The position numbers and the translations under genes were made by a program. From an uncultured Spirochaetota bacterium (lineage in GTDB: Bacteria > Spirochaetota > Spirochaetia > SZUA-6 > Fen-1364): 64,000 nt of DNA. The stretch lies in NCBI GenBank assembly GCA_963820525.1, contig CAWGAA010000001.1, positions 640,001-704,000 on the forward strand. The letters run 5' to 3'. This document shows, in pieces, positions 40,308 through 60,612 of the stretch. A model generated the notes under the pieces. It did no database searches. It was not told the DNA's origin and saw only the letters and a list, made by a program, of their open reading frames with translations. The first letter of the stretch is position 1, and the number at the start of each line of letters is the position of its first letter.

Positions 40308-41678
40308 CTATCGAGCGTTCGCCAGCAGGGCGACGAGTTCGCTCACGCGTATCGATTCCAGGCTTTCCACCGCGTGTATGATGTCGGAGCGCAGCTTGGC
40401 ATCTGCATGGGCTCCGGCAAGACCGTCGAACTTGTGTACGACGTGCTGGAAAGACATGGGGCGGGTATGGAATCCTTCATAGTCCTTCTTCTCCTTCACC
40501 AATACCCTTCCGACGCGGAGCGTAACCTTCAAGCGGCAGGCCATTTCCTCGGGGAACCTCCTGCTGAGCTCTGCGTCTGGATGGACCGTGATCTTTCGAA
40601 GGAGAGACTGAATGTCTTCGCCGCCAATCCGCTCGGGGCGATACTGGGCCGGCATCACCTGGTCGTCCAGAACGGCCGCCGCAAGCATGTAGTGGAGGCT
40701 GTGATCCGCCTCCTCCTTGGTGCGGACCCGCGTCTTGTCCCCCTCTTCTCCGCCTCCGATGATGTTATACGCCACGTCGAAGGTCTCCAGTTCTATCTGC
40801 TTCACGTCATCTGCTCCGAACTCTCCCTCGCGCTTGAGCTCCAGGATCCCCTCGATGGCGGACTGGGAATGGATCTCCGCATTGAATCTCTTGACGATGG
40901 TGCGCGTGACGCGCTCCAGGTCCTCGCGCGACCAGTCGATGTGGAATCTTCCCGCGATCGCGTCCATGAATCCCTTGTTGCCCTCGAAGACCTCCAGAGG
41001 GCCGGTGATCCCGTGCTTGGCCAGGAAAGCCGCGTGCATGGCGCCGAATCCGGCGTTGGGGTACGCAAGCCCCTTCCAGTTGGACAGGGCACCGGTGCGC
41101 GTTACACGAAGCGCATTGAATGCCGTCCCCGCGATGGCGATGGCATGGGCGGTTTTTTCCCTATCCAGTCCGAGAGCCTTGGATATCCCGGCAGCCAGGC
41201 CATAGAGGCCTTGAACCGTGTGGTCGAACCCTTTGGCACGAACCGGCGCTTCGTCGCTCAGCCTGCACTGCACCTGGTACGCGATGGCCAGCGCGGTCAT
41301 GAGATCCCTTCCCGTGCCCCCCGCGTACTCGCAGCCTGCGAGCACCGCGGAGAGGTTGTCCGAGGGGTGGCAGGTTTCTCCCTTGGCGAGATAGCTGTCG
41401 TTGAAGTCAAGGTACCGAACGAGGGCGCCGTTTGCGAAGGATGCACGGTCGGGAGCCGTCTTCCCCCCGCCGATCACGGTGCACAATCCGTTTCCACCCA
41501 GCTCGCTCACCTGCGCAAGCACCCTCCGCACGGGCGGCCCATCAAGCGCCCCAAGCGCGCAGCCCAGCGCGTCCAGGACACGGACCTTCAACTGGGCGCG
41601 AGCTGCTTCGCTCAAATCCTCGAATGAGCGCGCGGCCACGAACTCGGCCAGAGATTGAACCAGCGTCTTTTTTTCCAT
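40308..41678 (-). CDS. MmgE/PrpD family protein (2-methylcitrate dehydratase-like)
   Basis: RYLDFNDSY, CHPSDN, GFDH, LSNWKG, EEADHSLHY. Confidence 0.9.
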   Translation of the reverse strand: MEKKTLVQSLAEFVAARSFEDLSEAARAQLKVRVLDALGCALGALDGPPVRRVLAQVSELGGNGLCTVIGGGKTAPDRASFANGALVRYLDFNDSYLAKGETCHPSDNLSAVLAGCEYAGGTGRDLMTALAIAYQVQCRLSDEAPVRAKGFDHTVQGLYGLAAGISKALGLDREKTAHAIAIAGTAFNALRVTRTGALSNWKGLAYPNAGFGAMHAAFLAKHGITGPLEVFEGNKGFMDAIAGRFHIDWSREDLERVTRTIVKRFNAEIHSQSAIEGILELKREGEFGADDVKQIELETFDVAYNIIGGGEEGDKTRVRTKEEADHSLHYMLAAAVLDDQVMPAQYRPERIGGEDIQSLLRKITVHPDAELSRRFPEEMACRLKVTLRVGRVLVKEKKDYEGFHTRPMSFQHVVHKFDGLAGAHADAKLRSDIIHAVESLESIRVSELVALLANAR

Positions 41679-42088
41679 CAAATAAAAAATAGTGTCGGGA
41701 GCACTATCCTGGCTACTTCCTAGTACACACGCTACGTGTCGCGGACGGAAACAAAGTTCCTGTTGAGCACGCAAAGTTTTTCTATTTAGAGGAGCCGGTA
41801 TTACGCTCCGAAACGACTTTAGCTTAATTTTCTATCTATACGATATTATGCCAATAACTAATCCTTGATTAACTTGCATGATGTCTTATAATACCTTTCG
41901 AATCTCGAGGAGTCGTTTCGGCGACATTCGAGTCCTTCTAATTATACTCATTTTAAGAGTTCGTAATGAGAACGAAGGGGAGATTTCTACGCTCTTTTAA
42001 ACAACTCTTGCGTATCCTGAAATTTCTTCTACGCAATAAAAAAAATTAATCACGCTCTGCAAATGTGGCAATTCAAATCTTCTACAGA

Positions 42089-43324
42089 TTAAAGGCCATC
42101 TGCCGGGCTTGTCACTCCCAGCTTATTCTTTGTGGCAACATGTGTATAAATCATCGTGGTCGAGACATCCGAGTGCCCCATGAGCTCCTGAATGCTTCTT
42201 ATGTCGTATCCCTTCTCCACCAGGTGAGTCGCAAAACTATGCCGCAAAGTGTGTATAGTGGCGTGTTTTACTATCCCGGCCTCCCTGACGGCTCGTCTGA
42301 AAGCCTTTTGAAGGGTCGTCGCATATACGTGATGCCTGCGAATGACGTGCGTCATTGGATCTATTGAAAGATTTTCAGAAGGGAATACCCAAAACCAACC
42401 CCATTCTTTGCTGGCGCTGGTGTATTTCCTATCCAGTGCTGCAGGGACGGTTACTCCCGCTTCCAATTTCGCCCTGTCCTGATTGTAGATGATCCTGACT
42501 CGCTCGAGATGTTTTTTCAGCATTTCAACGAGCTTATCCGCAAGGATAGTTTCACGGTCTTTGTCTCCCTTGCCGGACCGTATCGTCAAGCAGTTTCTCT
42601 CGAAATCGACATCCTTTATTCGCAAGGACAGACACTCCTGCAGCCTGAGGCCGCCGCCATAGATCATCGTTGCCATCAAACGCGCAGTTCCTTTCAGCTG
42701 TTCAAGTATTCTCTTCACCTCTTCTTGTGCAAGAACCACAGGAAGTCTTCTTTGGATTTTCGAAGGGACAACGGTACTCAAAGAGTTAATCTCTATTCCC
42801 AGAACATTCCTGTAGATGAACAATAATGCGTTAAATGCGAGCCTCTGTGTTGCTGCCGATATCTTCTTTTCCACTGCAAGGTATGAAAGGAAGCTCTTTA
42901 AGTCTTGTTCCGTGATCTTTCCACATTCCTTTTCACTGACATACGATCGAAAACGCGCTATCCACGACATATAAGATTTTTCCGTCCGGAACGACAAATG
43001 CTTCAGCCTCATTATCCGAGAGACGCATTCTACCAATTTCTTCCATGTCATTGCTTCCGGGTTTGGAATAACGAGTACCTTTCTGACCACCTGCATCCCT
43101 TTGCATGACAGATAATAGTTGTAGAGCTGAATAGCATACCGAGCCTGCTTTACCTGCCAGTCTTCGTATTTCTTGCTAATATAGGAAATGAAGCCGTTGA
43201 AGTTCTGATTATCTTTCGAGAATTGCCTATAGTTCGTATATATCTCAACCCATTTCTGATAAGCGAGTCTGTCTTTCTCTCTAATGTCCGCTTTGGCCCT
43301 AAGGAACTCTAAGTAGGATGTCAT
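42089..43324 (-). CDS. intI: Integron integrase with N-terminal extension
   Basis: Tyrosine recombinase motifs YGGGLR, KGDKDR, HTLRHSFATH, MGH..TTMIY, plus IntI-specific insertion ALDRKY..EWGWFWVFPS..RRHH; divergent from cassette array. Confidence 0.96.
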   Translation of the reverse strand: MTSYLEFLRAKADIREKDRLAYQKWVEIYTNYRQFSKDNQNFNGFISYISKKYEDWQVKQARYAIQLYNYYLSCKGMQVVRKVLVIPNPEAMTWKKLVECVSRIMRLKHLSFRTEKSYMSWIARFRSYVSEKECGKITEQDLKSFLSYLAVEKKISAATQRLAFNALLFIYRNVLGIEINSLSTVVPSKIQRRLPVVLAQEEVKRILEQLKGTARLMATMIYGGGLRLQECLSLRIKDVDFERNCLTIRSGKGDKDRETILADKLVEMLKKHLERVRIIYNQDRAKLEAGVTVPAALDRKYTSASKEWGWFWVFPSENLSIDPMTHVIRRHHVYATTLQKAFRRAVREAGIVKHATIHTLRHSFATHLVEKGYDIRSIQELMGHSDVSTTMIYTHVATKNKLGVTSPADGL

Positions 43325-43449
43325 AACATGTCTCCTCTCGCTTTATAGAGCAGCACTAGAACACAACGCCCAAACCATTACTGCTGCTTGAGGAGATTTT
43401 GGAGATTATCCGTCGATCTTTAGGCTATGCGAACAACCCCAGCGGCAAC

Positions 43450-43483
43450 TTTTCGATAAAACTCTATAATATAAATGTTATAT
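43450..43483 (+). other. attI site (crossover G/TT at 43477/43478)
   Basis: GTTATAT core not preceded by an attC; similarity to cassette 21 begins at this core; left boundary approximate. Confidence 0.8.
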
Positions 43484-43763
43484 CCAATCTAGATTTATAT
43501 TGATTATCGAATAGGCAACGAATTAGTAATTCAATAAAAAGAGATAATACGTGTTTCAATAGCTTGTTTAACCATGATGGCGTTGGCATTGCTCTGGAAG
43601 GATGGCGGTGTTGTACTAATGTTGCTTGCTTGCTCTTAGTTTCAATACACTGCACGTCACCGTGGCTTAATGGTCAACGATTTCATTATAGGGCTCGGAT
43701 CAAGCTCTTTCTCTTGAAACAACAACTCTTTTCTGTTGTCCTCAACACCATCATACTGGATGG
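43478..43763 (+). ncRNA. Cassette 1: gene-less family A (candidate structured RNA)
   Basis: ATGATGGCGTTG (43574-43585) pairs with CAACaCCATCAT (43743-43754); one visible difference from cassette 21. Confidence 0.55.
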
Positions 43764-43959
43764 ATATAACATGCTGTTGGAGTTGTCCGCCTAGGCTACG
43801 CGTCGTTACTTATAGCTACGTTTGCTAGGGTTCCTTCGGTTGCTGATTCGGGGCGGCAACTCAACAGCGTCGTTAGCTGCTTCTTTATTTCTTTTACACA
43901 TTTTCCTAGTCTGTATTGGCTTTATTTTCTAGATATGATTTAATATTTGTAGCATTACA

Positions 43960-44421
43960 ATGCCAACCTTTAGAAAGGCTACTATTTCCGATATCGAATC
44001 TCTAATTTCCTTGCGCTTATCTTTTATAAATGAACTACATAAAGATTCTCCTGCTACAGACATTTCTTTGGAAACGGATCTGCGATCCTATTTCTCACAG
44101 AATATTAAAAGCAATCAGTTTATCGCTTGGCTAGCTATTGAAAATGACCAGATTATTGCTACTAGCGGATTGACTTTCTATCTATTACCACCCAATTCCA
44201 AGAATCCATCTGGCAAAGTAGCGTATATAATGAATATGTACACCCTGCCACATTTTAGGAACAAAGGCATTGCAAATGAATTATTTAAAAGAATTATTAA
44301 AGAAGCTCAATCACTTGGATATACGGAGCTATGCCTTCATGCAACAGAAATGGCAATTGGTATATATAAGAAATATGGTTTTATTGAACCACATGATAAG
44401 GAGTTGATGAAATATATTTGA
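43960..44421 (+). CDS. Cassette 2: GNAT acetyltransferase
   Basis: AYIMNMYTLPHFRNKGIA, LHAT...IYKKYGF. Confidence 0.9.
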   Translation: MPTFRKATISDIESLISLRLSFINELHKDSPATDISLETDLRSYFSQNIKSNQFIAWLAIENDQIIATSGLTFYLLPPNSKNPSGKVAYIMNMYTLPHFRNKGIANELFKRIIKEAQSLGYTELCLHATEMAIGIYKKYGFIEPHDKELMKYI

Positions 44422-44587
44422 AAATAAGTCGCAATCATTTCAGCAATAATAGAATTTATTAATGAATATTAAGAGAAGCAGCTAACATGTCGTTGCAGCT
44501 GACCGCCCAAGCTACGCGTCGTCACTTTATACTACGCGCACATACTCGTTTGCTTTTCCTAATGCGGGGCGGCAGCTGAACTCATTG

Positions 44588-46827
44588 TTATATCCATCTA
44601 AATTTATATTGATTAGTGAAGAAGCATCGGATTATTAATTCGATAATAATAAAAGACGTATTTCAATTGCCTATTTGCCTATGATGGCGTTGGCATTGCT
44701 CTGGAAGGATGGCTGTGTTGTACTACATTGCTTGCTTTTCTTTAGTTTCAGTACATGGCACGTCACCTCGGCTTGCCAACACCGATTGCATTCAACGGCT
44801 CGGATCAAGCTCCTTCAATTGATTAGATAGATCTTTTCTGCTTTCCTCAACGCCATCATACTGGATGGATATAACATGCTGTTGGAGTTGTCCGCCTAGG
44901 CTACGCATCGTTACTGATAGCTACGCGCGCTGAAGCATTTGTACTTGGATGATTCGGGGCGGCAACTCAACAGCGTCGTTATCTCCATCTAGATTTATAT
45001 TGATTAGTAAATAAGCAACCAATTATTAATTCAAGAATATTGGATAATACGTTTTTCAATAGCTTGCTTTCCCATGATGGCGTTGGCATTGAGCGGGAAG
45101 GATGGCTGTGTTGTACTAGTTTGCCTGCTTGTTTTTAGGTTCAATACACTGCGCGTCACCTTGGCTTATTGTCACCGATTACATTATAGGGCTCTGATCA
45201 AGCTCTTTTAATTGATTCGATTGCTCTTTTTCTGCATTCCTCAACGCCATCATACTGGATGGAGATAACATGTCGTTGCAGCTGACCGCCCAAGCTACGC
45301 ATCGTCACTTGAAACTACGCGCGCTCAGGTATTTCTTTTTTTTGAGGCGGGGCGGCAGCTGAACTCCTCGTTATCTCCATCTAGATTTATATTGATTAGC
45401 AATGAAGTTAAGAATTATTAATTAAATAATCTTGGATAAGACGCTTTTCAATTTCATGTTTGCCCATGATGGCGTTGGCCTTTCTCTGGAAGGATGGCGG
45501 TGTTGTACTAGGTTGCACGCTTGTTTTTAGTTTCAATGCATGGCACGTCACCTTGGCTTATTATCACCGATTACATTCAACGGCTCGAATCAAGCTCTTT
45601 CAATTGATTCGCTAGATCTTTTCTGCTTTCCTCAACGCCATCATACTGGATGGAGATAACATGTCGTTGCAGCTGACCGCCCAAGCTACGCGTCGTCACT
45701 TGAAACTATGCGTGCTCAGCTATTTCCTTTTTTTGAGGCGGGGCGGCAGCTGAACTCCTTGTTATATCCATCTAGATTTATATTAATTAGTGAAGAAGCA
45801 TAGGATTATTAATTCGAGAATAATAAAAGACGTTTTTCAATCGCTTATTTGCCTATGATGGCGTTGGCATTGCTCTGTAAGGATGGCGGTGTTGTACTAC
45901 ATTGCTTGCTTTTCTTTAGTTTCAATACTTTGCACGTCACCTCGGTTTGCCAACACCGATTACATTCAACGGCTCGGATCAAGCTCCTTCAATTGATTCG
46001 ATAGATCTTTTCTGCTTTCTTCAACGCCATCATACTGGATGGATATAACATGCTGTTGGAGTTGTCCGCCTAGGCTACGCGTCGTTACTGATAGCTACGC
46101 GCGCTGAAGCATTTGTACTTGTATGATTCGGGGCGGCAACTCAACAGCGTCGTTATATCCATCTCAATTTAAATTGATTATCAATAAAGCATTGAATTAT
46201 TAATTCAATAATATAGGATAAGACGCTTTTCAATTTCATATTTGCCCATGATGGCGTTGGTATTTGGCGGGAAGGTTGGCGGTGTTGTATTACCTTGCCT
46301 GCTTTTCTTTAGTTTCAATGTATGGCACGTCACCTTGGCTTATTGTCACCGATTACATTCTACGGCTCGGATCAAGCTCTTTCAATTGATTCGATAGATC
46401 TTTTCTGCTTTCCTCAACGCCATCATACTGGATGGATATAACCAGTCGTTGCAGCTGACCGCCTAGGCTACGCGGCGTTAGTGAAAACTACGCGTGCTCA
46501 ATCATCTGTTCTTTCCTGATTCGGGGCGGCAGCTGAACTCCATGTTATCTCCATCTAAATTTACTTTGATTAGCAATGAAGTAAGTAAATATTAATTCAA
46601 AGATCTTGTATAAGACGTTTTTCAATAGCTTGTTTGCCTATGATGGCGTTGGCATTGCTCTGCAAGGATGGCGGTGCTGTACTAGGTTGCATGCTTGTTT
46701 TTAGTTTCAATGCATGGCACGTCACCTTGGCTTATTATCACCGATTACATTCTACGGCTCGGATCAAGCTCTTTCAATTGATTCGCTAGATCTTTTCTGC
46801 TTTCCTCAACGCCATCATACTGGATGG
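44588..46827 (+). ncRNA. Cassettes 3-8: six tandem gene-less family A cassettes
   Basis: Bodies 44588-44868, 44979-45262, 45371-45653, 45762-46042, 46153-46435, 46545-46827, each followed by its own attC; all have the perfect 12-bp long-range IR. Confidence 0.55.
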
Positions 46828-46964
46828 AGATAACATGTCGTTGCAGCTGACCGCCCAAGCTACGCGTCGTTACCTGAAACTACGCGTGCTAAGGTATTTA
46901 ATTTTTTTGAGGCGGGGCGGCAGCTGAACTCCTTGTTAGCCCGCATTGAGATGGTCAGGTAGAT

Positions 46965-47504
46965 ATGAAAGCAGCTATTCTCGAGTGGATAGTGTCAATC
47001 CTGATTGAACATAAGAGCTTACTCTCCATCGCGATCAAACAGCGTTCAAAGTTCGAAGGATGGCTGAAGTATGAACTTGCTAGTCGTATGCTAGCAAAGG
47101 GTGCAACTAGCATGGAGGTAGAAGCAGCGTATCCAAGTTCAAAAACCAGATCCGACATCCATCTGAAAATAAGTGGCAAGGACTACTACATTGAACTAAA
47201 AACAGCGAACACAAATTGGAACATTAAAGGCACTACGAAAAAGGCGAAACCCATTACGATGAATGTGAACGGAATCATTAAAGATATCGAGAAGCTACGG
47301 TCACTATGCGATAGAGGAATTAGTGCGTTCATCTTGTTTCCGGTTCCCCTTGAAAAAGAGAAGTATTGGAAGTACATGGAACGCATTTCAAAAGAAACCA
47401 ACATTGATTTGTCCAAAACGTTGAAGTTCAGAACAATGACGACAAGTCTTGGAGGCAAAGACAAGGCTGATATCCTTATCTGCGTCTTAGAGGTGTCCAA
47501 CTAG
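46965..47504 (+). CDS. Cassette 9: PD-(D/E)xK nuclease-like hypothetical protein
   Basis: FEGWLKYE...RSDI...YYIELK arrangement. Confidence 0.6.
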   Translation: MKAAILEWIVSILIEHKSLLSIAIKQRSKFEGWLKYELASRMLAKGATSMEVEAAYPSSKTRSDIHLKISGKDYYIELKTANTNWNIKGTTKKAKPITMNVNGIIKDIEKLRSLCDRGISAFILFPVPLEKEKYWKYMERISKETNIDLSKTLKFRTMTTSLGGKDKADILICVLEVSN

Positions 47505-47763
47505 ACAGCAGCAGTATCGCTAGGATGACCATGATACGCAAATAGGGTCTACAGAGCTAGGAAAATAAAACGGGAAAGAACAGACAATTCGAAATAAGCG
47601 CAATGGGATAATCAGAAAGATGTCACGAAACCGCAAGGACAATAAAATCGGCTGCGGGCTAACAAGTCGTTGCAGCTGACGCCGGGAGTTCCAGCTGTTT
47701 CGATTGAGTTTGGTCTACCGTGGTCCTTCGGTTGCTGATTCGGCGGCGCAGCTGAACTCCATG

Positions 47764-48047
47764 TTATATCCAATCTAGATTTATATTGATTATCGAATAG
47801 GCAACGAATTAGTAATTCAATAAAAAGAGATAATACGTGTTTCAATAGCTTGTTTAACCATGATGGCGTTGGCATTGCTCTGGAAGGATGGCGGTGTTGT
47901 ACTACATTGCCTGCTTGTCTTTAGTTTCAAGGCATGGCACGCCACCTTGGCTTATTATCACTGATTACATTCTACGGCTTAGATCAAGCTCTTTCTCTTG
48001 AAACAACAACTCTTTTCTGTTGTCCTCAACGCCATCATACTGGATGG
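47764..48047 (+). ncRNA. Cassette 10: gene-less family A (mosaic)
   Basis: Ends match cassettes 1/21; middle 47905-47981 resembles cassettes 5/7/8. Confidence 0.55.
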
Positions 48048-48271
48048 ATATAACATGCTGTTGGAGTTGTCCGCCTAGGCTACGCGTCGTTACTTATAGC
48101 TACGTTTGCTAGGGTTCCTTCGGTTGCTGATTCGGGGCGGCAACTCAACAGCGTCGTTAGACGCGTATAGGCTATCGTTCGAGTGTCTTTTTTCCATAAC
48201 CTTGAGCAAATGCTTGATAATCTACAATCAAGTCTTTCGTAAATAATTTATTTGCACCTGGAAATTGTTTC

Positions 48272-48808
48272 ATGCATATAACTCTCATGAGACACTTCAA
48301 AGTTCAATATCATTGGAAACCCTCTTATACTTCCGATGAATATGCTTCAGCAGATGCGGAATACGACAATGCAGATGTAATTGACCAACAAATACATCTT
48401 TCCAAAGAATATACAATGATTTTCGTAAGTACTTTAAGGCGGACTCAACAGACATTATACTATTTGTTTGGAAATGTTCCTTTTAAACAAACAAACCTAT
48501 TAGATGAAGTTCGGCTAGCTCCTTTTATGTATTCTAGAATCCGTCTCCCTCTTCTTATGTGGCTTATCATGGGTAGAATACAATGGTTCTTAAATATTAA
48601 ACGCCAACCAGAGGCCAGAACAGATACTATAAGAAGAGCCGAAGATTTTATAAAGACGATAAAAGCGCTAAATGGAAATGTATTAATTATAGGTCATGGC
48701 TTCTTCCTAAGAGTACTGGCGAGTAAGATTATTGGAATGGGATTTGTAGGAAAGGCTTTCGATTATTTACATAATGGTGAATATCATACATATTATTTCA
48801 AATCCTGA
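48272..48808 (+). CDS. Cassette 11: histidine phosphatase-family protein
   Basis: LMRH, STLRRTQQT, LDEV, IGHG. Confidence 0.8.
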   Translation: MHITLMRHFKVQYHWKPSYTSDEYASADAEYDNADVIDQQIHLSKEYTMIFVSTLRRTQQTLYYLFGNVPFKQTNLLDEVRLAPFMYSRIRLPLLMWLIMGRIQWFLNIKRQPEARTDTIRRAEDFIKTIKALNGNVLIIGHGFFLRVLASKIIGMGFVGKAFDYLHNGEYHTYYFKS

Positions 48809-48975
48809 AAAATATTAAATACTTAAGACTCTTTTAGAAGCTTTATATTGTTTATAATTCTTATACGCGTCTAACAAGTCGTTGCAGTTGACCGCCTAAG
48901 TTACGTTTCTTTACTTGAGACTATGTTTGCTAAGTTCCTTCGGTTGCTGATTCGGGGCGGCAACTGAACTCCATG

Positions 48976-49305
48976 TTATATTCACGCATATTGAAGATTC
49001 TTAGATAATTTCAGTATTAGTTCCCTGTATACGTATGCTTGAGTATTGCTATCATAAAGGGCTTTTTTCCTATTTGAGTAATGTTGTGAGATTCACCTCT
49101 TTCATTTCTTTTCTTTCCTTTGCGCGGGCCCTGGTAGTCACTAGGTCAAAGCTCGCGCCACTCTTTTGGTGGCCTCTCTTACCTTTTAACCTTGTTTTCT
49201 TTCGTTCAAGGTTGAAGTCTAGATTCAACCTGTTGCGGTCAGCTTTTTTCACTCTCTTATAGTTCTCTGCATCGGCCCGCGCTAGTCTCTTATGTTTCCG
49301 CGTAA
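48976..49305 (+). ncRNA. Cassette 12: divergent gene-less family B
   Basis: Retains GCGCGGGCC (49122-49130), GCTCGCGC (49151-49158), GGCCCGCGC (49274-49282) and the TGTTTCCGCGTA end. Confidence 0.5.
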
Positions 49306-49447
49306 ATATAACAAGTCGTTGCAGCTGACCGCCTAGGCTACGCGTCGTTAGAAATAACTACGCTCGTTCAAGTATTTGTTCTTTCTTGATTCGGGGCGGC
49401 AGCTGAACTCCATGTTATCCGTTCATCAGAAAGGTGGTAACAAAATA

Positions 49448-50110
49448 ATGGCAATTGCTCAAGTTGTTCTTGAATATATCAAGATATTGATATGGCCCCT
49501 AAGTGTCTTTATTTTCGTAATTATCTTCCGCATTCCACTTATAGAATTCCTTAGAAAAGTTCGTCACGCTGATCTTCCAGGTGGGTTGTCGCTTGATCTA
49601 CAAGAAAATATTCTTGAAGCTAAAGAGCTATCGCGAAAAGTTCAGAAAGAATATCACCAACAAGATGATACTCAAAAGCCATCTATTCCATTAACAGAAG
49701 CCAATGCTAGAATAATTCAATTGGGCCTTATGCCCTCTCCAAGTGGCCTTGATATGAATTATTACCGTGCACTAGCAAATCAGGATCCAACACTGGCATT
49801 AGCTGGACTAAGAATTGAAATTGAAATATTGGCAAAGAACCTTGCAAAAGGATTTAAGGTTACTATCAGAACCAATGATTCAGGACATATTTTACTTAGG
49901 AAATTGGCAGATAGTGGCGCTATAACACAAAACCAATTTCGCCTTGCCGAAAGAGTATTGCAATTATGCAATATTGCAATTCACGGTCAATTTGTTTCAC
50001 TTGAACAGACTGATAAAATACTCGAAATATCAGATATCTTAGCAGAGCAATATATTTCTTGGCTTAGCTGGGGGTTTAGCGATAATTGGAAGCTAATGAA
50101 TGAAAAATAA
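49448..50110 (+). CDS. Cassette 13: hypothetical membrane-anchored protein with C-terminal HEPN/DUF4145-like segment
   Basis: RBS AAGGTGG; N-terminal TM (LIWPL); C-terminal LCNIAIHG resembles an RxxxxH motif. Confidence 0.6.
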   Translation: MAIAQVVLEYIKILIWPLSVFIFVIIFRIPLIEFLRKVRHADLPGGLSLDLQENILEAKELSRKVQKEYHQQDDTQKPSIPLTEANARIIQLGLMPSPSGLDMNYYRALANQDPTLALAGLRIEIEILAKNLAKGFKVTIRTNDSGHILLRKLADSGAITQNQFRLAERVLQLCNIAIHGQFVSLEQTDKILEISDILAEQYISWLSWGFSDNWKLMNEK

Positions 50111-50251
50111 CCAAAGTGATACATATTTTATCTTACATGAACGGATAACAAGTCGTTGCAGCTGACCGCCTAGGCTACGTTTCGTTGCAGCCAACTACGC
50201 TTACTAAAGTATCTGTTCTTTCTTGATTCGGGGCGGCAGCTGAACTCCATG

Positions 50252-51319
50252 TTATATCCATCTAGATTTATATTGATTAGCAAATAAGCAACGAATTATT
50301 AATTCAATAATAGAATATAATACGCTTTTCAATAGCTTTTTTGCCCATGATGGCGTTGGCATTGTTCTGGAAGGATGGCGGTGTTGTACTACATTGGTTG
50401 CTTGTTTTTAGTTTCAATGTATGGCACGTCACCTTGGCTTATTGTCACCGATTACATTCAACGGCTCGTATCAAGCTCTTTCAATTGATTCGATAGATCT
50501 CTTCTGCTTTCCTCAACGCCATCATACTGGATGGACATAACATGCGGTTGGAGTTGTCCGCCTAGGTTACGCGTCGTTACCGATTGTTACGCTTGCTATG
50601 GTTCCTTCGGTTGCTGATTCGGGGCGGCAACTCAACCGCGTCGTTATCTCCATCTAGATTTATATTGATTAGCAAATAAGCAACGAATTATCAATTCAAG
50701 AATATTTGATAAGACGTTTTTCAATATTTTGCTTTCCCATGATGGCGTTGGCATTGGGCGGGAAGGATGGCGGTGTTGTACTAGTTTGCCTGCTTGTTTT
50801 TAGGTTCAACACACTGCGCGTCACCTTGGCTTATTGTCACCGATTACACTATTGGGCTCGGATCAAGCTCCTTTAATTGATTCGATTGCTCTTTTTCTGC
50901 TTTCCTCAACGCCATCATACCGGATGGAGATAACATGTCGTTGCAGCTGACCGCCCAAGCTACGCGCCGTTATTCGAAACTACGCGCGCTCAGGTATTTC
51001 CTCTTTTTGAGGCGGGGCGGCAGCTGAACTCCTTGTTATATCCATCTAGATTTATATTGAGTAGCAAATAAGCAACGAATCATTAATTCAATAATAGAAT
51101 ATAAGACGCTTTTCAATGGCTTTTTTGCCCATGATGGCGTTGGCATTGTTCTGGAAGGATGGCGGTGTTGTACTACATTTGGTTGCTTGTTTTTAGTTTC
51201 AATGTATGGCACGTCACCTTGGCTTATTGTCACCGATTACATTCGACGGCTCGTATCTAGCTCTTTCAATTGATTCGATAGATCTTTTCTGCTTTCCTCA
51301 ACTCCATCATACTGGATGG
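50252..51319 (+). ncRNA. Cassettes 14-16: three tandem gene-less family A cassettes
   Basis: Bodies 50252-50534, 50644-50927, 51036-51319. Confidence 0.55.
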
Positions 51320-51464
51320 ACATAACATGCGGTTGGAGTTGTCCGCCTAGGTTACGCGTCGTTACTGATTGTTACGCTTGCTATGGTTCCTTCGGTTGCT
51401 GATTCGGGGCGGCAACTCAACCGCGTCGTTAGACGGCAAAAGTTTTAAATAATAGAGGTGCAAT

Positions 51465-52196
51465 ATGATTACTGAATTCCCTAAGAACATTCATGACAAG
51501 CTGAAAACCTATGTCTACTTATATATTGATCCAAGAGATAATAGCATATTCTATGTAGGAAAAGGTGTCGGTAATCGTGCTTTTTCTCATCTAAAAGATT
51601 TTTCTGAAACATAAAAGTCTGAACGTATCCAAGAAATTACCCAACATGGCTCATGTCCAAGAATCGAAATATTAATCCACGGCCTTGATGATGAAACGGC
51701 AAAGAGGGTTGAAGCTTCGTTAATCGATTTGCTTGGAATTGATACTTTATTAAATCAAGTTAGAGGATACCAATCAAAAGAGTATGGCAGAATGTCACCA
51801 GAACAATTAATCGCAGTCTATGACGTGGAAAAGGTTGAAATAGAAGAACCCTCGATACTTATAACTATCAATAAATCCTTTCACTACGGAATGCAGCCTA
51901 TTGAACTATATGATGCAACCAGATCAGCGTGGGTTATTGGTGAAAGGAAACGTGCCGCAAAATATGCATTAGCTGTCTATTCGGGAGTTGTTCAAGAAGT
52001 TTATGAAATTAAGGATTGGTACCCATCACATTCTACTTTCAATACAAAAAACTATGAAGATGAAATTGAATCAAATGAGGATAGATGGGAATTTGTAGGA
52101 AAATTAGCTGACAATAAAATTAGAAATAAATATAAATTTAAAAATGTATCTGAATATGTTGGAGCTCAGAACCCTATAAAATATGTAAAATGCTAG
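51465..52196 (+). pseudogene. Cassette 17: LEM-3-like GIY-YIG nuclease with in-frame TAA at 51612-51614
   Basis: [34 protein letters not shown] then stop; same frame continues (VEASLIDLLG..LLNQVRG). Confidence 0.8.
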
Positions 52197-52315
52197 ATTT
52201 GCCGTCTAACATGCTGTTGGAGTTGACCCCTGGAATTTCAATTTGAACTGCTGCTTGCTTCTCGGACTCTACTGTAGCTTGGCCCTTCGGGCGGCGGGGC
52301 AACTCAACAGCGTTG

Positions 52316-52627
52316 TTACATCCACGCTAATAATTTCTTTGAGAGAATATTTTGCCTATTCTGTTTTGAATTATTCAAAGCAAATAAAGAATTCGATTTA
52401 GCAATCTTGCAGGTTTTACTTTGTTGAATTCCTCTGATACTTTTGCGCGGGCCATGTAAGTTCCCATTGGAACAGCTTGCGCCCATTAGCTGAAAGGGCA
52501 TCATCAACTTTTAACATCATTTTCTTTCGCTATGCCCGAATTCTATCATCAATCAACTAACCTTATATTTTCTTCATATCGTGAAGCTTCTTTGCTGGCC
52601 CGCGCATATTGTTCTGTTTCCGCGTAG
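52316..52627 (+). ncRNA. Cassette 18: gene-less family B
   Basis: GCGCGGGCC 52445-52453 / GGCCCGCGC 52597-52605 plus a local GTTCC/GGAAC hairpin. Confidence 0.55.
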
Positions 52628-52783
52628 ATGTAACATGCGGTTGGAGCAGACCGCTTGGACTACGCGTCGTTACTGATTGCTACGCAAGTTAAAGTAATTG
52701 TACCTGTATGATACGGCGCGGCTGCTCAACCGCGTCGTTATGACGCCCAAATTTTCAGTAGCTTGAATTGCTAATCTGATGAC

Positions 52784-52839
52784 TTGACTTCATGCCTATT
52801 GATCGATAAGATTATAGTTGTACGTAGAACTTATCGATC
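52784..52839 (+). promoter_or_regulatory. vapBC promoter/operator
   Basis: TTGACT-17-TAAGAT (52784-52812) overlapped by IR GATCGATAAG (52801-52810)/CTTATCGATC (52830-52839). Confidence 0.7.
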
Positions 52840-52849
52840 GGAGGCTACT

Positions 52850-53056
52850 ATGGCTACAGTAACCATATCCCCTAAGTTTCAAGTTGTGATTCCTAAGGAT
52901 GTCAGACAGAAACTTGGACTTACTCCTGGCCAGAAAGTGCAGACCATCCTTTTTGAAGATCGAATTGAACTAATTCCCGTGAAGGCCATTAAAAAGATGA
53001 AAGGTTTCCTTAAAGGAATTGATACTCATATTCCTAGAGAATCTGATAGAATATGA
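52850..53056 (+). CDS. vapB: Cassette 19: AbrB/MazE/SpoVT-type antitoxin
   Basis: VTISPKFQVVIPKDVRQKLGLTPG; GGAGG RBS. Confidence 0.88.
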   Translation: MATVTISPKFQVVIPKDVRQKLGLTPGQKVQTILFEDRIELIPVKAIKKMKGFLKGIDTHIPRESDRI

Positions 53057-53430
53057 ATGTTGTTGATTCTAGCGCTTGGCTTGAATATTTAGCTGCTGGT
53101 CCAAATGCTTCATTCTTCTCTGAACCAATTGAGAATATAGCTGAACTAATAGTTCCTACTATTAGTTTATATGAAGTATTCAAGCGCATAGTCCAACAAA
53201 GATCAGAGAATGAAGCTCTTCAAGTAATAGCTGTCATGCAACAAGGCAGGCTAGCAGAATTGGATCAAAGAACTGCATTAAGCGCAGCTCGTATAAGTAT
53301 AGATCATCAATTACCCATGGCAGACAGCATAATATTGGCAACAGCAAGAATAAATAATGCAATTCTATGGACTCAAGATTCTCATTTTAAAGGAATTCAA
53401 AATGTAAAATATGCTAAATCACAAACCTAA
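53053..53430 (+). CDS. vapC: Cassette 19: PIN-domain toxin
   Basis: VVDSSAWLEY, YEV, MADSIILATA, WTQDSHF; ATGA overlap. Confidence 0.92.
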   Translation: MNVVDSSAWLEYLAAGPNASFFSEPIENIAELIVPTISLYEVFKRIVQQRSENEALQVIAVMQQGRLAELDQRTALSAARISIDHQLPMADSIILATARINNAILWTQDSHFKGIQNVKYAKSQT

Positions 53431-53579
53431 TATTTAATAGTTTTTAATTATAAGATTTTTCGGGGGCGTCATAACATGCTGTTGGAGTTGACCGCCTAGC
53501 CTACGTGTCGTGACTTAGAGCTACGCGCGGTAGAGCCTTTTGTACTTGGATGACTCGGGGCGGCAACTCAACAGCGTCG

Positions 53580-54256
53580 TTATCTCCATCTAGATTTATA
53601 TTGATTAGCAATGAAGTTAAGAATTATTAATTAAATAATCTTGGATAAGACGCTTTTCAATTTCATGTTTGCCCATGATGGCGTTGGCCTTTCTCTGGAA
53701 GGATGGCGGTGTTGTACTAGGTTGCACGCTTGTTTTTAGTTTCAATGCATGGCACGTCACCTTGGCTTATTATCACCGATTACATTCAACGGCTCTAATC
53801 AAGCTCTTTCAATTGATTCGCTAGATCTTTTCTGCTTTCCTCAACGCCATCATACTGGATGGAGATAACATGTCGTTGCAGCTGACCGCCCAAGCTACGC
53901 GTCGTCACTTGAAACTATGCGTGCTCAGCTATTTCCTTTTTTTGAGGCGGGGCGGCAGCTGAACTCCTTGTTATATCCAATCTAGATTTATATTGATTAT
54001 CGAATAGGCAACGAATTAGTAATTCAATAAAAAGAGATAATACGTGTTTCAATAGCTTGTTTAACCATGATGGCGTTGGCATTGCTCTGGAAGGATGGCG
54101 GTGTTGTACTAATGTTGCTTGCTTGCTCTTAGTTTCAATACACTGCACGTCACCGTGGCTTAATGGTCAACGATTTCATTATAGGGCTCGGATCAAGCTC
54201 TTTCTCTTGAAACAACAACTCTTTTCTGTTGTCCTCAACGCCATCATACTGGATGG
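53580..54256 (+). ncRNA. Cassettes 20-21: gene-less family A
   Basis: Bodies 53580-53862 (near-identical to cassette 5) and 53971-54256 (near-identical to cassette 1). Confidence 0.55.
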
Positions 54257-54365
54257 ATATAACATGCTGTTGGAGTTGTCCGCCTAGGCTACGCGTCGTT
54301 ACTTATAGCTACGTTTGCTAGGGTTCCTTCGGTTGCTGATTCGGGGCGGCAACTCAACAGCGTCG

Positions 54366-55385: not shown

Positions 55386-55639
55386 TATTGACTGCGGTTC
55401 TTCCCAAAGGGCATTGTCGCCGTGAAGTTGATTTCATTCACACGAAAGAGATGGGAATTGATGAATTAAAATGCAATTTGATCGAAAAAAAGATCTTCAG
55501 TAAGGAAAAGCAAATGATTTCAAATGGCCTGCCTAACAAGTCGTTGCAGTTGACGCCTTGAATTCTGTCTGAAAGATAGAGCGCTATCTGGTACAACTGT
55601 CACGGCTGGGGTGATTCGGCGGCGCAACTGAACTCCATG

Positions 55640-56377
55640 TTACATCCACGCTAATAATTTCTTTGAGAGAATATTTTGCCTGTTCTGTTTTGAATTATTC
55701 AAAGCAAATAAAGAATTCGATTTAGCAATCTTGCAGGTTTTACTTTGGTGAATTCCTCTGATACTTTTGCGCGGGCCATGTAAGTTCCCATTGGAACAGC
55801 TCGCGCTCATTAGCTGAAAGGGCGTTATTAACCTTTCTGGAATCGTATTCTTTCGCTATTGGTTGAATTCTATCATCAATCAACTAACCTTATATTTTTT
55901 TCATATCGTGAAGCTTCTTTGCTGGCCCGCGCATATTGTTCTGTTTCCGCGTAGATGTAACATGCGGTTGGAGCAGACCGCTTTGACTACGCATCGTTAC
56001 TGATAGCTACGCGTGTTAAAACCAATTGTACCTGGATGATGCGGCGCGGCTGCTCAACCGCGTCGTTACATCCACGCTAATAATTTCTTTGAGAGAATAT
56101 TTTGCCTGTTCTGTTTTGAATTATTCAAAGCAAATAAAGAATTCGATTTAGCAATCTTGCAGGTTTTACTTTGGTGAATTCCTCTGATACTTTTGCACGG
56201 GCCATGTAAGTTCCCATTGGAACAGCTCGCGCCCATTAGCTGAAAGGGCATCATCAACTTTTAACATTATTTTCTTTCGATATGCCCGAATTCTATTATC
56301 AATCAACTAACCTTATTTTTTCTTCATATCGTGAAGCTTCTTTGCTGGCCCGCGCATATTGTTCTTTTTCCGCGTAG
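55640..56377 (+). ncRNA. Cassettes 24-25: tandem gene-less family B
   Basis: Bodies 55640-55954 and 56066-56377, close to cassette 18 and sharing its attC variant. Confidence 0.55.
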
Positions 56378-57207
56378 ATGTAACATGCGGTTGGAGCAGA
56401 CCGCTTGGACTACGCATCGTTACTTATAGCTACGCGTGTTAAAACCAATTGTACCTGGATGATGCGGCGCGGCTGCTCAACCGCGTCGTTATGATTTGCG
56501 AGGCTTTCGACACGGAGGACTTATGGAAAAAAGTGGTGAGAACTCTCTTGATCAGATGATACAGTATATCAAGCAATGGCTTGAAACCAATCAGCGCAAC
56601 CAAATGGCTGTCAGACCGCTTACCGATATTCTAGAAGTGCTTGAGTGGGCAAAACAGACCATAGATGAACTTCAAAATGCACATAGTGCTACGGAAAGAC
56701 TCGGGACCCTATTTGTACAATTTGACAAGACTTATGGAACCCTAATTGAGTTCTTACCGCCGGCACCGCAGGTCAACATAGAAGGAATTGATAGGCTCGC
56801 TTCTGCTACAACCAGTCTCGCATCTTCAGGCCTGCTTGGAATATCCGGGTCCGTTTATCCAAACATGGGTCCGCAGTGGTTAGCCGGAAGGTTTAATGCC
56901 TTCGCAAAGATGCAGGAAAGGCACGAAACAATTTCTAAAGTACGGAAGCTCTTGCTTAAGCTCGAGGCGAAGAATTCCCACCCTCCCAATATCGTGGATG
57001 AATATGACTTGATGATAGAAAAGGGATTTTATTTTAGGGGAAATGAAATTGATCAGATAACCTCTGCCGGAATAACAATGAGAAATGTTCTTGAACACGT
57101 AAATGGCAAGCTTTTATCCCTTGTAGCATGGTCAAAAGGTGAGAAAAAGAAATGGTCTAAAATGGTTGAATTTCTCAAAGCCGATGCGCTCGCGCCAATT
57201 GAGCTAG

Positions 57208-58947
57208 CCCACATTTCTCACAAATAGCGTAGCTGAATCTCAAGAACGCATAGAATGTGCTTCGGTACTATTGGGATGAATCTTCAAAGCTGCGGGAGAC
57301 TCCGAAACCCACTTTTCAGATGTTTCAAGATCTCCTGCATGCCACATTCCGTGAAAAACGTCTTGAACTGTCCACAGAAGTGGACCTCAGGGCATAAGGA
57401 TCCCGCTGAGCTTATGCCTCGAGTGGGTAGTTCAGCTACCCGTCTGAAATACAGCCGTTCTGATTCGATAGATCGCCTGACGGAAGAGCTCTTGGTAGGG
57501 ATAGCCGCTTGCGAAGCTCACATAGATGCGACGTACGCTCAGACGGACCTGCGCGCCGATCTTCAACACCTTCAGCCGAATCGTGTCACACTGCGCAGTG
57601 GCAAGCTCCGTACCCTTCAAGGCAATCCTTCGCAACGCGCTCATGATCAGGTATGCCACGGAGGAAAACCACAACCGCAGCTGGTTTGCCCTCATCGTCG
57701 CGGAGCTGGTCCGGTCCGCGAAAAGGTAGAGTTGTTGTTCCTTGATACGGTTTTCCATGTCCCCTCGGGCGCAGTATAGATCCTCATAGAGTACTTGAGC
57801 AGGGAACCGGTCCTGAGGGAGGGAGGTGACGACAAACCGCGGGTTCTCCCCCTTGAGCAGGTACTCCGCTTTGGCAACAACGCGCCTGCTTTTCGACCAG
57901 GTCTTCTTCGTGCGGTACATCAACTCGGCGTATCTTCGCTGCGGCAGCCCCGTGGATATGCACTGCCGCCTGGATTCGGATAGTTGCCGACGGATCTTGC
58001 GCAACAAACGCTGGTTTTTCGCGATTCCGAACAGGAAATCCACGTCGTTTCCCTCGCACCAGCTCATGATCGCTTCACGGCAGAACCCGCTGTCTGCCCG
58101 TGCAATAATGCGCACATCAGGCCACCGCTCCCGGATCTGGGCCACGATTCTGGCCAACTCCACCTCGGCGCCCGCGCTGGCATCTATATTCGAAGGGCGC
58201 AACTTTGCGCACAAGAGATGGTCGCCGCAGAAGATGTACAGCGGCAGGTAGCAGTAGCAATCGTAGTAGCCATGGAAGAACCTGCCTTCCTGCTCCCCAT
58301 GCACGGGATCGTCGGTGGCATCAAGATCAAGCACGATTTCCGCGGGGGGCTGCTGGAAGGAGTCCAGAAAGGCATTCACCAGGAACATCTCCACCATAGT
58401 ATGGTTGACCGTGATTTTCTTGTACCGGTGTGTGAATAGACTCGTCCCGCCGCTTGTCTCTAAACGGTTCAGGGTGCTCTTTCCGGCAAGAGCGTTTCCC
58501 TTATCCCGGTTCTGCCGTCTGTTTTCCCCGCTCACATCCAGTTTCCCGCACACGGCGGCAAGAACGGGATCTTTTCTCAGCCGGTCATGATCGTTGAGGT
58601 CTTCGTAGCCAAGGCATATGCCGAATACTCTTTGGCTGATCAATTCCTCAACTGTGTGTTCGATATAGCCTTTCTCGCGGTAGTCGGTAAAGCAGTCAGC
58701 AAACGCCTTTATGAATCCCGTGGCCTGCTCAAGCTCTCTGAGAATAAGCGCGCCAGCATCTGAGCTGATCGTGCCCCCATCGAAGTTAGCGACGACCTTT
58801 TTCTCTCCGAGGTCTTGAAAGCTGAATAAGGATGGAGTACAGTCTGTTTGCATCGTTTGGCCTTTCATTCCTTGTATATTCTGTTTGTGGCAAAGCAATT
58901 ATACCAGAGTGAAAGGCCTTTTTGTATCTATTTGTGAGAAATGCGGG
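57208..58947 (-). mobile_element. Complete IS1380-family element
   Basis: IRs CCCACATTTCTCACAAATAG / CTATTTGTGAGAAATGCGGG (19/20); CTAG duplication at 57204-57207 and 58948-58951. Confidence 0.92.
57432..58853 (-). CDS. IS1380-family transposase
   Basis: FDGGTISSDAG, GYEDLNDHD, LDLDATDDPVHG, RADSGF, YCARGDMENRIKE. Confidence 0.94.
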   Translation of the reverse strand: MQTDCTPSLFSFQDLGEKKVVANFDGGTISSDAGALILRELEQATGFIKAFADCFTDYREKGYIEHTVEELISQRVFGICLGYEDLNDHDRLRKDPVLAAVCGKLDVSGENRRQNRDKGNALAGKSTLNRLETSGGTSLFTHRYKKITVNHTMVEMFLVNAFLDSFQQPPAEIVLDLDATDDPVHGEQEGRFFHGYYDCYCYLPLYIFCGDHLLCAKLRPSNIDASAGAEVELARIVAQIRERWPDVRIIARADSGFCREAIMSWCEGNDVDFLFGIAKNQRLLRKIRRQLSESRRQCISTGLPQRRYAELMYRTKKTWSKSRRVVAKAEYLLKGENPRFVVTSLPQDRFPAQVLYEDLYCARGDMENRIKEQQLYLFADRTSSATMRANQLRLWFSSVAYLIMSALRRIALKGTELATAQCDTIRLKVLKIGAQVRLSVRRIYVSFASGYPYQELFRQAIYRIRTAVFQTGS

Positions 58948-59351: not shown

Positions 59352-59359
59352 CCTTATTG

Positions 59360-59638
59360 ATGCAGTTCGCCTTTGACAAGGAGAAGAATGACCTTCTTTA
59401 TAAACGGCGTGGGGTAACTTTTCCCATGGTAATTGAGGCGATTGCAGATAAGGGAATTCTATTGAATTTTGATCACCCAAATCAATTGAAATATCCAAAC
59501 CAAAAGGTACTTGTTGTTGATTTGGAAGGATATGCATACTGCGTACCTTATATTATTCAAGGAACTACTTGGTTCTTGAAAACGATCTATCCAAGCAGAC
59601 GTTTCAAGTACCTAATCGAAGGAGAAACCAATGGATAG
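59360..59638 (+). CDS. Cassette 27: BrnT-like toxin
   Basis: FDKEKN..RGVTF..HPNQ.KYPNQ..YAYCVPY..FLKTIYPSR. Confidence 0.8.
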   Translation: MQFAFDKEKNDLLYKRRGVTFPMVIEAIADKGILLNFDHPNQLKYPNQKVLVVDLEGYAYCVPYIIQGTTWFLKTIYPSRRFKYLIEGETNG

Positions 59639-59933
59639 ATATAATCCGAAATACATTGACCGTGAAGAGAAAGATCTCATGCAAGACATTGACAAAATAG
59701 ATCTCCGTAAGGTTAGAAAGCCGACCCAAAAGGTACAAGGACAACTCAGGAGAGCTGCAAAGAGGCACCTAGAAAAAGAATTGAAAATGAATATTAGAAT
59801 TGACCCCTATGAATTATCAAAGATTAAAGAAAAGGCAGAAATGGAAGGATTAAAATACCAAAGCCTCGTAAAGAGCGTACTACACAAATACATTACTGGC
59901 CAATTGATTGAAAAAGGGAAAAAAGCTGTATAG
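59631..59933 (+). CDS. Cassette 27: RHH/CopG-type antitoxin
   Basis: MNIRID..LSKIKEKAEMEGLKYQSLVKSVLHKY; overlaps toxin stop. Confidence 0.8.
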   Translation: MDRYNPKYIDREEKDLMQDIDKIDLRKVRKPTQKVQGQLRRAAKRHLEKELKMNIRIDPYELSKIKEKAEMEGLKYQSLVKSVLHKYITGQLIEKGKKAV

Positions 59934-60245: not shown

Positions 60246-60274
60246 TTGACTATACATACCAATAATGGTATGTT
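60246..60274 (+). promoter_or_regulatory. TA promoter with palindromic operator
   Basis: TTGACT-17-TATGTT with TG extension; IR ACATACCA (60254-60261)/TGGTATGT (60266-60273). Confidence 0.7.
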
Positions 60275-60279
60275 TCGAC

Positions 60280-60612
60280 ATGCAATATGAAGTCGTATTG
60301 TTGGAGCCTGCAACGGACTTCCTACGCAACCTCGAGGGGAAGCTGCAAGCAAAAGCGTTCCGATCAATCGAACTTCTAGGGCATTTTGGAACACAATTGA
60401 TCATGCCGCACTCCAAAAAGCTCAGCGGATACGATCTGTGGGAATTGCGGGTTCGACATGCAGGCATGATCTGCCGACTATTCTATTTCCACGATCGGGA
60501 TAGGATCTTTGTTGTGACTTCTGGATATGTTAAGAAGAGTGACAGGACTAATCCAAAGGAGATAAAGAGGGCACTCCGGCTTAAGATGGAGCACCTTGGA
60601 GGGACCACATAA
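60280..60612 (+). CDS. Cassette 28: RelE/ParE (HigB/Gp49-like) toxin
   Basis: MPHSKKL..LWELRV...RLFYF..GYVKKS.RTNPKEIKRA. Confidence 0.88.
   Translation: MQYEVVLLEPATDFLRNLEGKLQAKAFRSIELLGHFGTQLIMPHSKKLSGYDLWELRVRHAGMICRLFYFHDRDRIFVVTSGYVKKSDRTNPKEIKRALRLKMEHLGGTT

Follow-up and report, generated by a model that had tools for sequence, protein, structure and literature searches.

Whether the gene-less cassettes that recur in large chromosomal integrons are selfish, act as promoters or encode RNA has been debated since at least 2006. According to the available parts of Boucher et al. 2006 (PMC1382264), Vibrio integrons hold highly paralogous non-coding cassettes, present in 45 copies in V. 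vulnificus CMCP6, and the proposals made there were that these are selfish elements or that they have promoter or RNA functions. Here we analyse a comparable family, Family A, in the cassette array of an integron from an uncultured Spirochaetota bacterium, the beginning of which lies in a stretch of 64,000 nt (the window, C1:640001-704000; coordinates with the prefix C1 follow the whole-genome contig, while bare numbers are window positions, position 1 being C1:640001). An earlier note on this stretch had described 13 repeated units in it and had read them as encoding a structured RNA.

Like the Vibrio paralogous cassettes as portrayed in the accessible sections of that paper, Family A cassettes are short, carry a normal attC site and have neither an open reading frame (ORF) nor BLASTX-type relatives nor a synonymous-site pattern; many paralogs share one array (45 there, 66 here) and close relatives occur within the group only. 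They differ in their spirochaete host, in their unrelated sequence and in a body marked by an invariant long-range inverted repeat, here called P1; the phrase 'secondary structure' is absent from the text of PMC1382264. The promoter cassettes (Blanco et al. 2024, PMC11014356; Tansirichaiya et al. 2019, PMC6557892, the latter concerning spirochaete integrons) are, in the portions of these accounts at hand, likewise gene-less, AT-rich and found in large sedentary arrays, but they measure 491-666 bp as opposed to approximately 390 bp in Family A, where scans gave no conserved sigma-70-like sense promoter. A closing repeat is not mentioned in the same portions of the two accounts, and in the partly accessible literature covered, no description was found of an invariant long-range repeat as a hallmark of gene-less cassettes. 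As judged from these sources, the kind of element, an amplified non-coding cassette, is already known, and what is new is a repeat layout shared by unrelated families and absent from gene cassettes.

Family A and its integron

All 13 repeat units were found again in the places given in the earlier note. Each consists of a 289-294-nt body, counted from the G of GTTAT to the C of ATAAC, and an attC site of approximately 108 nt, and the mean column identity of the 13 bodies is 90%. On the + strand, the bodies (with the two P1 arms of each in brackets) occupy 43477-43770 (body 1, the first cassette of the array; 43574-43585 and 43743-43754, with one mismatch), 44587-44875 (body 2; 44681-44692 and 44848-44859), 44978-45269 (body 3; 45074-45085 and 45242-45253), 45370-45660 (body 4; 45466-45477 and 45633-45644), 45761-46049 (body 5; 45855-45866 and 46022-46033), 46152-46442 (body 6; 46248-46259 and 46415-46426), 46544-46834 (body 7; 46640-46651 and 46807-46818), 47763-48054 (body 8, numbered cassette 10 in the earlier note and bearing CTGA/TTAG; 47860-47871 and 48027-48038), 50251-50541 (body 9; 50347-50358 and 50514-50525), 50643-50934 (body 10; 50739-50750 and 50907-50918), 51035-51326 (body 11; 51131-51142 and 51299-51310, with one mismatch), 53579-53869 (body 12; 53675-53686 and 53842-53853) and 53970-54263 (body 13; 54067-54078 and 54236-54247). 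The attC of the first cassette, an example of the site that follows each body, is at 43763-43875 on the same strand (an nhmmer match at C1:683763-683875).

Next to the first unit lies intI (42089-43324, - strand), which encodes an integrase of 411 aa that matches the TIGR02249 integron integrase model with 410.1 bits (cut-off 265) and contains the Pfam domains Phage_integrase and Phage_int_SAM_4. Between the intI start codon and the first GTTAT boundary at 43477 is an intergenic region (43325-43476) that probably holds attI and a promoter zone, and from 43477 rightwards the GC content falls from about 0.63 in the flank to about 0.40 in the array. The array is a chain of units split by attC-type sites of about 108 nt, in which ...ATAAC is followed by an L'' box, a variable middle, an L' box and GTTA... 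(box order R''-L''...L'-R'), and compensated L-stem variants are visible in the attC alignment. Tandem Repeats Finder reported a 392-nt period, and an attC profile (nhmmer) gave 174 sites, all on the + strand, at C1:683763-824374. With an IntI-type tyrosine recombinase and an array of attC sites in one orientation beside intI, this locus is an integron, and Family A units, which start after the G of GTT and end with their own attC, are integron gene cassettes.

A profile built from the 13 copies and searched against the genome returned 66 copies, 47 of them distinct, all on the + strand at C1:683477-818156 and all within one chromosomal cassette array of about 140 kb, where identical copies (up to 5) stand far apart. 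When the 174 inter-attC bodies were clustered, 60 fell into Family A, 26+5+4 into a second family (Family B) and two smaller clusters sharing its arm motif, and the remaining 79, one of 164 nt and 78 of 607-3308 nt, were single or in pairs; the order of A, B and long cassettes along the array was indistinguishable from random. A miniature inverted-repeat transposable element was rejected as an identity for Family A, as 66 of 66 profile matches are full cassettes in the array and none lies outside cassettes. The P1 motif itself has five exact copies outside the array, single arms only, in GC-rich core DNA.

Exact pieces of Family A are also present on contigs from three wetland runs that belong to other studies, one such piece being the 175 nt of 44681-44855 with zero differences. 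The gene cassettes next to the family in this array are largely or wholly missing from these contigs, which at their loose ends enter the heads of other cassettes, a pattern that fits mobile units in varying order. None of 60 related genomes contained Family A, the one match being of 32 nt (E 5e-4, in G051). A scan of species genomes for P1 arms 145-175 nt apart found one GC-rich stretch without cassette resemblance, and the same scan of metagenome contigs found one true cassette (L036, a 1011-bp contig) and one chance match (L037).

Two further observations concern the history of single copies. A copy with a mismatched P1 3' arm (CAACTCCATCAT) is found in identical form at 51035-51326 and C1:759116-759407, with identical attC sites and different neighbours, which suggests movement as one cassette in spite of the mismatch. 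Four copies (C1:708335, 746180, 756252 and 789072) lack the first 26-47 nt or so and abut unrelated, mostly GC-rich sequence, on account of which nested cassettes were rejected; two of them share an end-like repeat (...GCGCAATTACTTA...), and, read by eye, the truncations look like insertion elements landed in the AT-rich head.

Pairing of the cassette head with its own attC

The only true covariation in Family A is that of the cassette head with the R'' box of its own attC, a DNA recombination stem. The first 15 nt of the cassette pair with the 15 nt ending in its own R'' box; the pair at columns 6/294 is A-U in 22 copies, C-G in 15 and other in 7, giving 16 double-change cells, a count reached by none of 500 shuffles, and one further double change is found at columns 9/291. 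The heads pair with their own tail, not with the preceding attC or the next head (read by eye in a handful of rows), and the stem is the pattern expected of a unit passing through a circular form. It also serves as an internal positive control, showing that the alignment can reveal real covariation where this is present.

Of the 60 Family A cassettes scored, 34 have a perfect anchored head-tail run of 12 nt, 16 have one of 10 nt and 10 have one of 5-9 nt. A long head-tail stem is a general property of the integron here: gene-size cassettes (43 distinct, 500-1100 nt) have head-tail complementarity of 9-14 nt in 39 of 43, the mode in controls being 4-5, and a long private head-tail stem recurs in 10 of 12 cassettes from a related genome (G021:C9:237000-251401). 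Since these 9-14-nt stems are private, the R stem of these spirochaete attC sites is cassette-specific and about twice the canonical 7 bp.

Tests of the proposed RNA structure

The earlier note had proposed three covarying pairings within the body, P1, P2 and P3, and all three can be drawn. The P1 5' arm ATGATGGCGTTG is exact on the + strand in 13 of 13 units and its partner CAACGCCATCAT, 155 nt downstream, in 11 of 13, with one mismatch in the other two (43743, 51299); P1 matches number 27 in total, where 0.32 would be expected by chance. Every single variant listed for P2 is likewise present in the sequence. What was not recovered is the covariation. Shuffles and slides served as controls, and in an alignment of 48 distinct copies (47 genomic ones plus one on a metagenome contig), 0 of 45 P1-P3 pairs were double-changed. 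Pairing and covariation were at the level of the shuffled controls; 95.4% of P1-P3 paired cells were able to pair as against 95.5% after shuffling (472 of 500 shuffles as high), and the covariation score was 0.057 as against 0.057 (284 of 500 as high). The paired columns are thus no more covariant than shuffled ones, an outcome that the earlier note had itself named in advance as speaking against its structured RNA. RNAalifold, applied to the 13 copies, returned -47.85 kcal/mol with a covariation term of +0.12 kcal/mol, and the one of its 63 pairs that was double-changed (columns 6/291) belongs to the attC R'/R'' stem and not to P1-P3.

The change to CTGA/TTAG in the copy at 47763-48054, which had been presented as compensatory within P3, is indeed there, but such changes are no commoner than in shuffles, 143 of 500 of which match or exceed the double-change count in the P3 register proposed. 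In the 48 copies, pair 203/222 of this register is C-G in 35, U-A in 2 and broken in 11, and 16 copies cannot form pair 202/223. The argument from the wobbles to the + strand was partly circular, because the fold itself had been derived from that strand. A strand can be told by the fact that G.U is tolerated on the + strand and A.C on the - strand. Where Watson-Crick pairs have minority variants, G.U (in 11 pair columns, 39 cells) was no commoner than A.C (in 14 pair columns, 28 cells), and transversion mismatches affected 21 pairs (71 cells); approximately a quarter of variant pair columns keep pairing, which by our own estimate is roughly what unselected mutation would give. P1, being perfectly Watson-Crick, is uninformative both on the strand and on RNA versus DNA. 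As selected pairings P2 and P3 have no statistical support, and the case illustrates how wobble-compatible variants picked by eye can mimic covariation among recent paralogs.

A comparison with Rfam, which the earlier note had suggested, matched no family: nothing was found at E up to 1 over 41000-64000, and one cassette searched at E up to 10 gave two noise matches only (E 4.7 and 9). The former reading of a structured RNA of about 180 nt under selection is upheld as regards selection on P1, but not as regards an RNA with a covarying P1-P3 fold; P1 by itself may still act in RNA. That reading had also left aside the integron context, in which the single stem with true covariation is the DNA recombination stem.

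Selection on P1 and folding of the body

No other 12-column windows of the body are as well conserved as the P1 arms, in which 0.43% of letters differ from the consensus as against 8.8% in the body as a whole. In a tree built from the 48 copies, 5 parsimony changes fall on the 24 arm columns (0.21 per column), compared with 2.18 per column elsewhere (Poisson P ~7e-17); such counts are inflated by recombination between copies, so that the ratio alone is meaningful, and by this measure P1 evolves at approximately one tenth of the rate seen elsewhere in the body. This amounts to strong purifying selection on P1. None of the five changes in the arms is compensated, and the base after the 5' arm would form G.U in 41 of 48 copies, A-U in 3 and another combination in 4.

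Between the arms there is no stable hairpin, and in folding stability the 155-nt interior does not surpass dinucleotide-shuffled sequence (z +0.50 and -0.28 for RNA of the + and the - strand respectively, -0.67 for DNA of the - strand); P2 as drawn is not used in the minimum-energy fold of the copy tested. When one whole cassette (391 nt) is folded as a circular single strand, P1 (12 of 12 pairs) is present alongside the attC hairpin and a head-tail stem of 14 bp, whichever strand is folded and whether DNA or RNA energies are applied, a result that is an illustration and not evidence. Ahead of P1, inside an AT-rich stretch of 97 nt, are the conserved blocks TGATTA and, after 16-17 nt, ATTATTAATTC. 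GATGG occurs three times (P1 5' arm, P2 5' arm and tail) and CCATC twice (head and P1 3' arm), at alignment columns 98-137 and 272-299, so that the P1 3' arm has alternative partners, namely the P2 5' arm (7+3-4 bp around a bulge) and, in a local 5-bp hairpin, the tail.

A second gene-less family

Family B, counted together with the two arm-motif clusters, is a second gene-less family of unrelated sequence with 35 copies, 31 of them distinct, found at 55639-56491 in the window and at 35 places in C1:688979-815000. Its layout consists of an AT-rich head, a perfect 9-11-bp repeat (TGCGCGGGCCA...TGGCCCGCGCA), a short tail and attC. The invariant arms GCGCGGGCC/GGCCCGCGC span 161-166 nt and are among the best-kept windows, with 0.72% non-consensus letters as against 16.8% overall (31 distinct copies), and they have undergone four single changes, all uncompensated. 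The 5' arm also has a partial partner nearby (GCTCGCGC). The array is a clean case, in which two unrelated gene-less families keep an invariant long-range repeat and gene cassettes have none.

Absence of a conserved reading frame

The Family A frame that starts at ATGATG, at the P1 5' arm, extends over 45-65 codons in 29 of the 47 distinct copies and is cut by frameshifts or stops to 21-40 codons in the other 18. In the 26 copies without indels, variable columns are spread over the three codon positions as 25/25/26, and pN/pS is 0.77-0.97 in all six frames. Pfam returned nothing for three Family A cassette ORFs. A word-indexed search of 5.8 billion clusters returned nothing for a 76-aa ORF, and a full scan of 1.84 billion representatives gave only a 72-aa call on the cassette itself and two low-complexity matches; the 72-aa call continues the frame of the copy at C1:767845, from which it differs in one residue, within attC. 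A 49-codon frame stands at the 150-bp limit of the ORF-less definition of Boucher et al., and a few copies read 65-76 codons into attC. With no periodicity, truncated frames and neither Pfam matches nor protein relatives, a coding region was rejected; Family A is gene-less, being without a conserved reading frame, protein relatives or a synonymous-site pattern.

Interpretation

The explanation that we favour, while placing it slightly short of an even chance, is that Family A, an amplified gene-less cassette as shown above, is a selfish or regulatory non-coding element with a closing stem that would act single-stranded, in DNA or RNA. IntI would have copied the body of about 290 nt with its attC through the array up to 66 copies; P1 would close a domain of about 180 nt whenever the cassette is single-stranded, and in the excised circle it would be placed 1-2 nt from the extended attC stem. 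A folded non-coding cargo of this kind may confer an advantage in transmission or persistence during excision and re-insertion by IntI, and Family A would then be a selfish passenger of the integron rather than a host gene. A benefit from the cargo is suggested by the fact that only the two stem-bearing families reach 35-66 copies while gene cassettes are single or paired. That P1 plays its role in the single-stranded DNA intermediate of integrase recombination is a tentative and somewhat doubtful part of this explanation; its chief competitor is the same stem at work in the sense transcript.

Several points weigh against this explanation. The formation of P1 is a prediction from the sequence, which would suit DNA and RNA alike. 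The arms are invariant beyond what pairing demands and have no compensated variants, which a sequence-specific binding site would also fit. Within the domain, P2/P3 paired columns change less than the unpaired interior (1.38 as against 2.29 events per column), so that a constraint exists there that is not of the pairing-preserving kind and that the favoured explanation leaves unexplained. Gene-size cassettes have no second internal stem (mean best 7.28, as against 7.08 in mismatched controls), which shows that recombination does not in general depend on one. The mismatched-arm copy found in two contexts indicates that a perfect P1 is not strictly required for movement. Finally, a family known from one genome and one 1-kb metagenome contig offers low comparative power.

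In a bolder version, which we consider rather unlikely, the domains of Family A (12 bp, about 180 nt) and Family B (9-11 bp, about 163 nt) would be convergent adaptations of parasitic cassettes that raise excision and re-insertion by IntI or protect the excised strand, or else two new cassette-borne structured RNAs. If true, a convergent single-strand adaptation would explain why only gene-less cassettes reach 35-66 copies, and the cassettes would be hyper-parasites of the integron with a defined cis-acting structure; should the stem raise mobility, competition among cassettes for the integrase would have been traced to a cis element.

P1 invites comparison with two kinds of DNA or RNA structure. 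attC sites are hairpins that IntI recombines as folded single strands. Like them, the P1 stem is possible in single strands only, its GTTG/CAAC cores are like L boxes and it lies 1-2 nt from the extended R stem; unlike them, it has the order GTT...AAC instead of AAC...GTT, a loop of 155 nt and neither an R box nor extrahelical bases. P1 as a recombination site was rejected, there being no cassette boundary at P1. Retron msr-msd RNA has a1/a2 inverted repeats, and from this general background Family A resembles it in having a perfect long-range repeat of about 12 bp that bounds a non-coding unit of 150-180 nt; it differs in an interior without a stable hairpin and in that the G after the 5' arm is not invariant (48 copies). 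A retron-like reading was rejected because the genome, which is 96.7% complete, has no retron reverse transcriptase (RT), its only RVT_1 match being a group II intron RT with a GIIM maturase domain on another contig.

It is unlikely that Family A specifies a sense-strand non-coding RNA of about 180 nt with its ends closed by P1, acting as a regulatory or stable small RNA. The inner stem, peculiar to the two gene-less families and missing from gene-bearing cassettes, is cargo, and the AT-rich stretch with TGATTA and ATTATTAATTC ahead of P1 and the slower change of P2/P3 columns are consistent with it; ORF-less cassettes encoding regulatory RNA have moreover been described for Xanthomonas, according to the available part of a review (PMC8876359). 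Against this stand the lack of double changes in the 45 pairs, with pairing equal to that of shuffles, G.U variants that are no commoner than A.C, an interior with a positive z on the + strand and an Rfam search over 23 kb without a match at E up to 1, to which a search of one cassette with the limit raised to E 10 added noise only. There is also no consistent sigma-70-like promoter on the + strand (the best site occurs in 14 of 44 copies), and no terminator-like site follows P1.

By analogy with described promoter cassettes, the AT-rich body might drive neighbouring cassettes in the sense or antisense direction, with P1 incidental or modulating, an idea that we regard as improbable for Family A. 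As far as the accessible parts of the two studies go, most of 29 gene-less Vibrio cassettes tested have sense-strand promoter activity (PMC11014356) and Treponema ORF-less cassettes act as promoters (PMC6557892). In Family A the body has about 40% GC in a genome of 63% GC, and a - strand site, TTGAAA-17-TA.AAT, occurs at one place of the alignment in 25 of 44 copies; its -10 hexamer, however, falls on the most variable columns, and 19 of 48 copies read TTGAAT (by eye). The same 14 of 44 copies are the best that consensus scans for a conserved + strand promoter achieve, gene-size cassettes are not preceded by Family A more often than expected (26 A-to-long transitions, expectation 26.9), and an invariant 12-bp repeat with arms 155 nt apart would be left unexplained. 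According to the available text of PMC11014356, promoters of gene-less cassettes are not findable in silico, which makes sequence scans weak evidence both ways.

There is only a small chance, in our estimation, that the P1 arms are not a stem at all and form an inverted pair of sites with a specific sequence, bound by a regulator, a nucleoid protein or an accessory factor of the recombinase. The sequence of both arms is invariant apart from five changes, all of them uncompensated, and their GTTG/CAAC cores resemble, by eye, the L boxes of the attC sites in this array. However, Family B has the same layout with very different arm sequences, which favours pairing over one recognised sequence; the motif is found nowhere else in the array, its five exact copies elsewhere are in GC-rich core DNA, and no candidate binding protein is encoded in the cassette.

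Although long-range pairing hides the start codon in the hok and AapA1 mRNAs, and although a frame of at least 45 codons from the P1 5' arm is open in 29 of 47 distinct copies and the - strand promoter-like site in 25 of 44 could yield an antisense RNA, a small peptide or type I toxin-like module, in which P1 would hide the start of a translated ATGATG frame of 45-49 aa, is barely credible given the even spread of variation over codon positions, pN/pS values alike in six frames, the 18 of 47 copies cut to 21-40 codons, the lack of relatives among 1.84 billion representatives except for the call on the cassette itself and, by eye, the lack of a Shine-Dalgarno-like sequence before ATGATG and of a comparable frame in Family B.

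Other features of the locus and related integrons

Of the 61 genomes searched, the present one among them, 32 have integron integrases above the cut-off. The arrays of two related genomes (G024, G021) have attC sites of the type seen here, and in the 34 kb of these arrays examined there were no short amplified cassettes. The GC-skew signal for the direction of replication in the present genome is weak. A second integron integrase gene lies at C1:1954228-1955157 (- strand, 448.6 bits), 1.1 Mb from the big array, with an attC-like match nearby at C1:1963662-1963775, and a few more attC-like matches are present on C2 and C3.

Within the window, two ORFs of 488 aa with TTG starts (40308-41774 and 57432-58898, both on the - strand) are transposase-like by eye. 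One lies just outside intI and the other 14 kb inside the array, and the integron platform could be bracketed by them as two copies of the same insertion element. At 52784-53430, one cassette holds overlapping + strand ORFs of 90 and 125 aa that by eye resemble an antitoxin and PIN-type toxin pair, and more small ORF pairs are found at 59357-59933 and 60265-60905.

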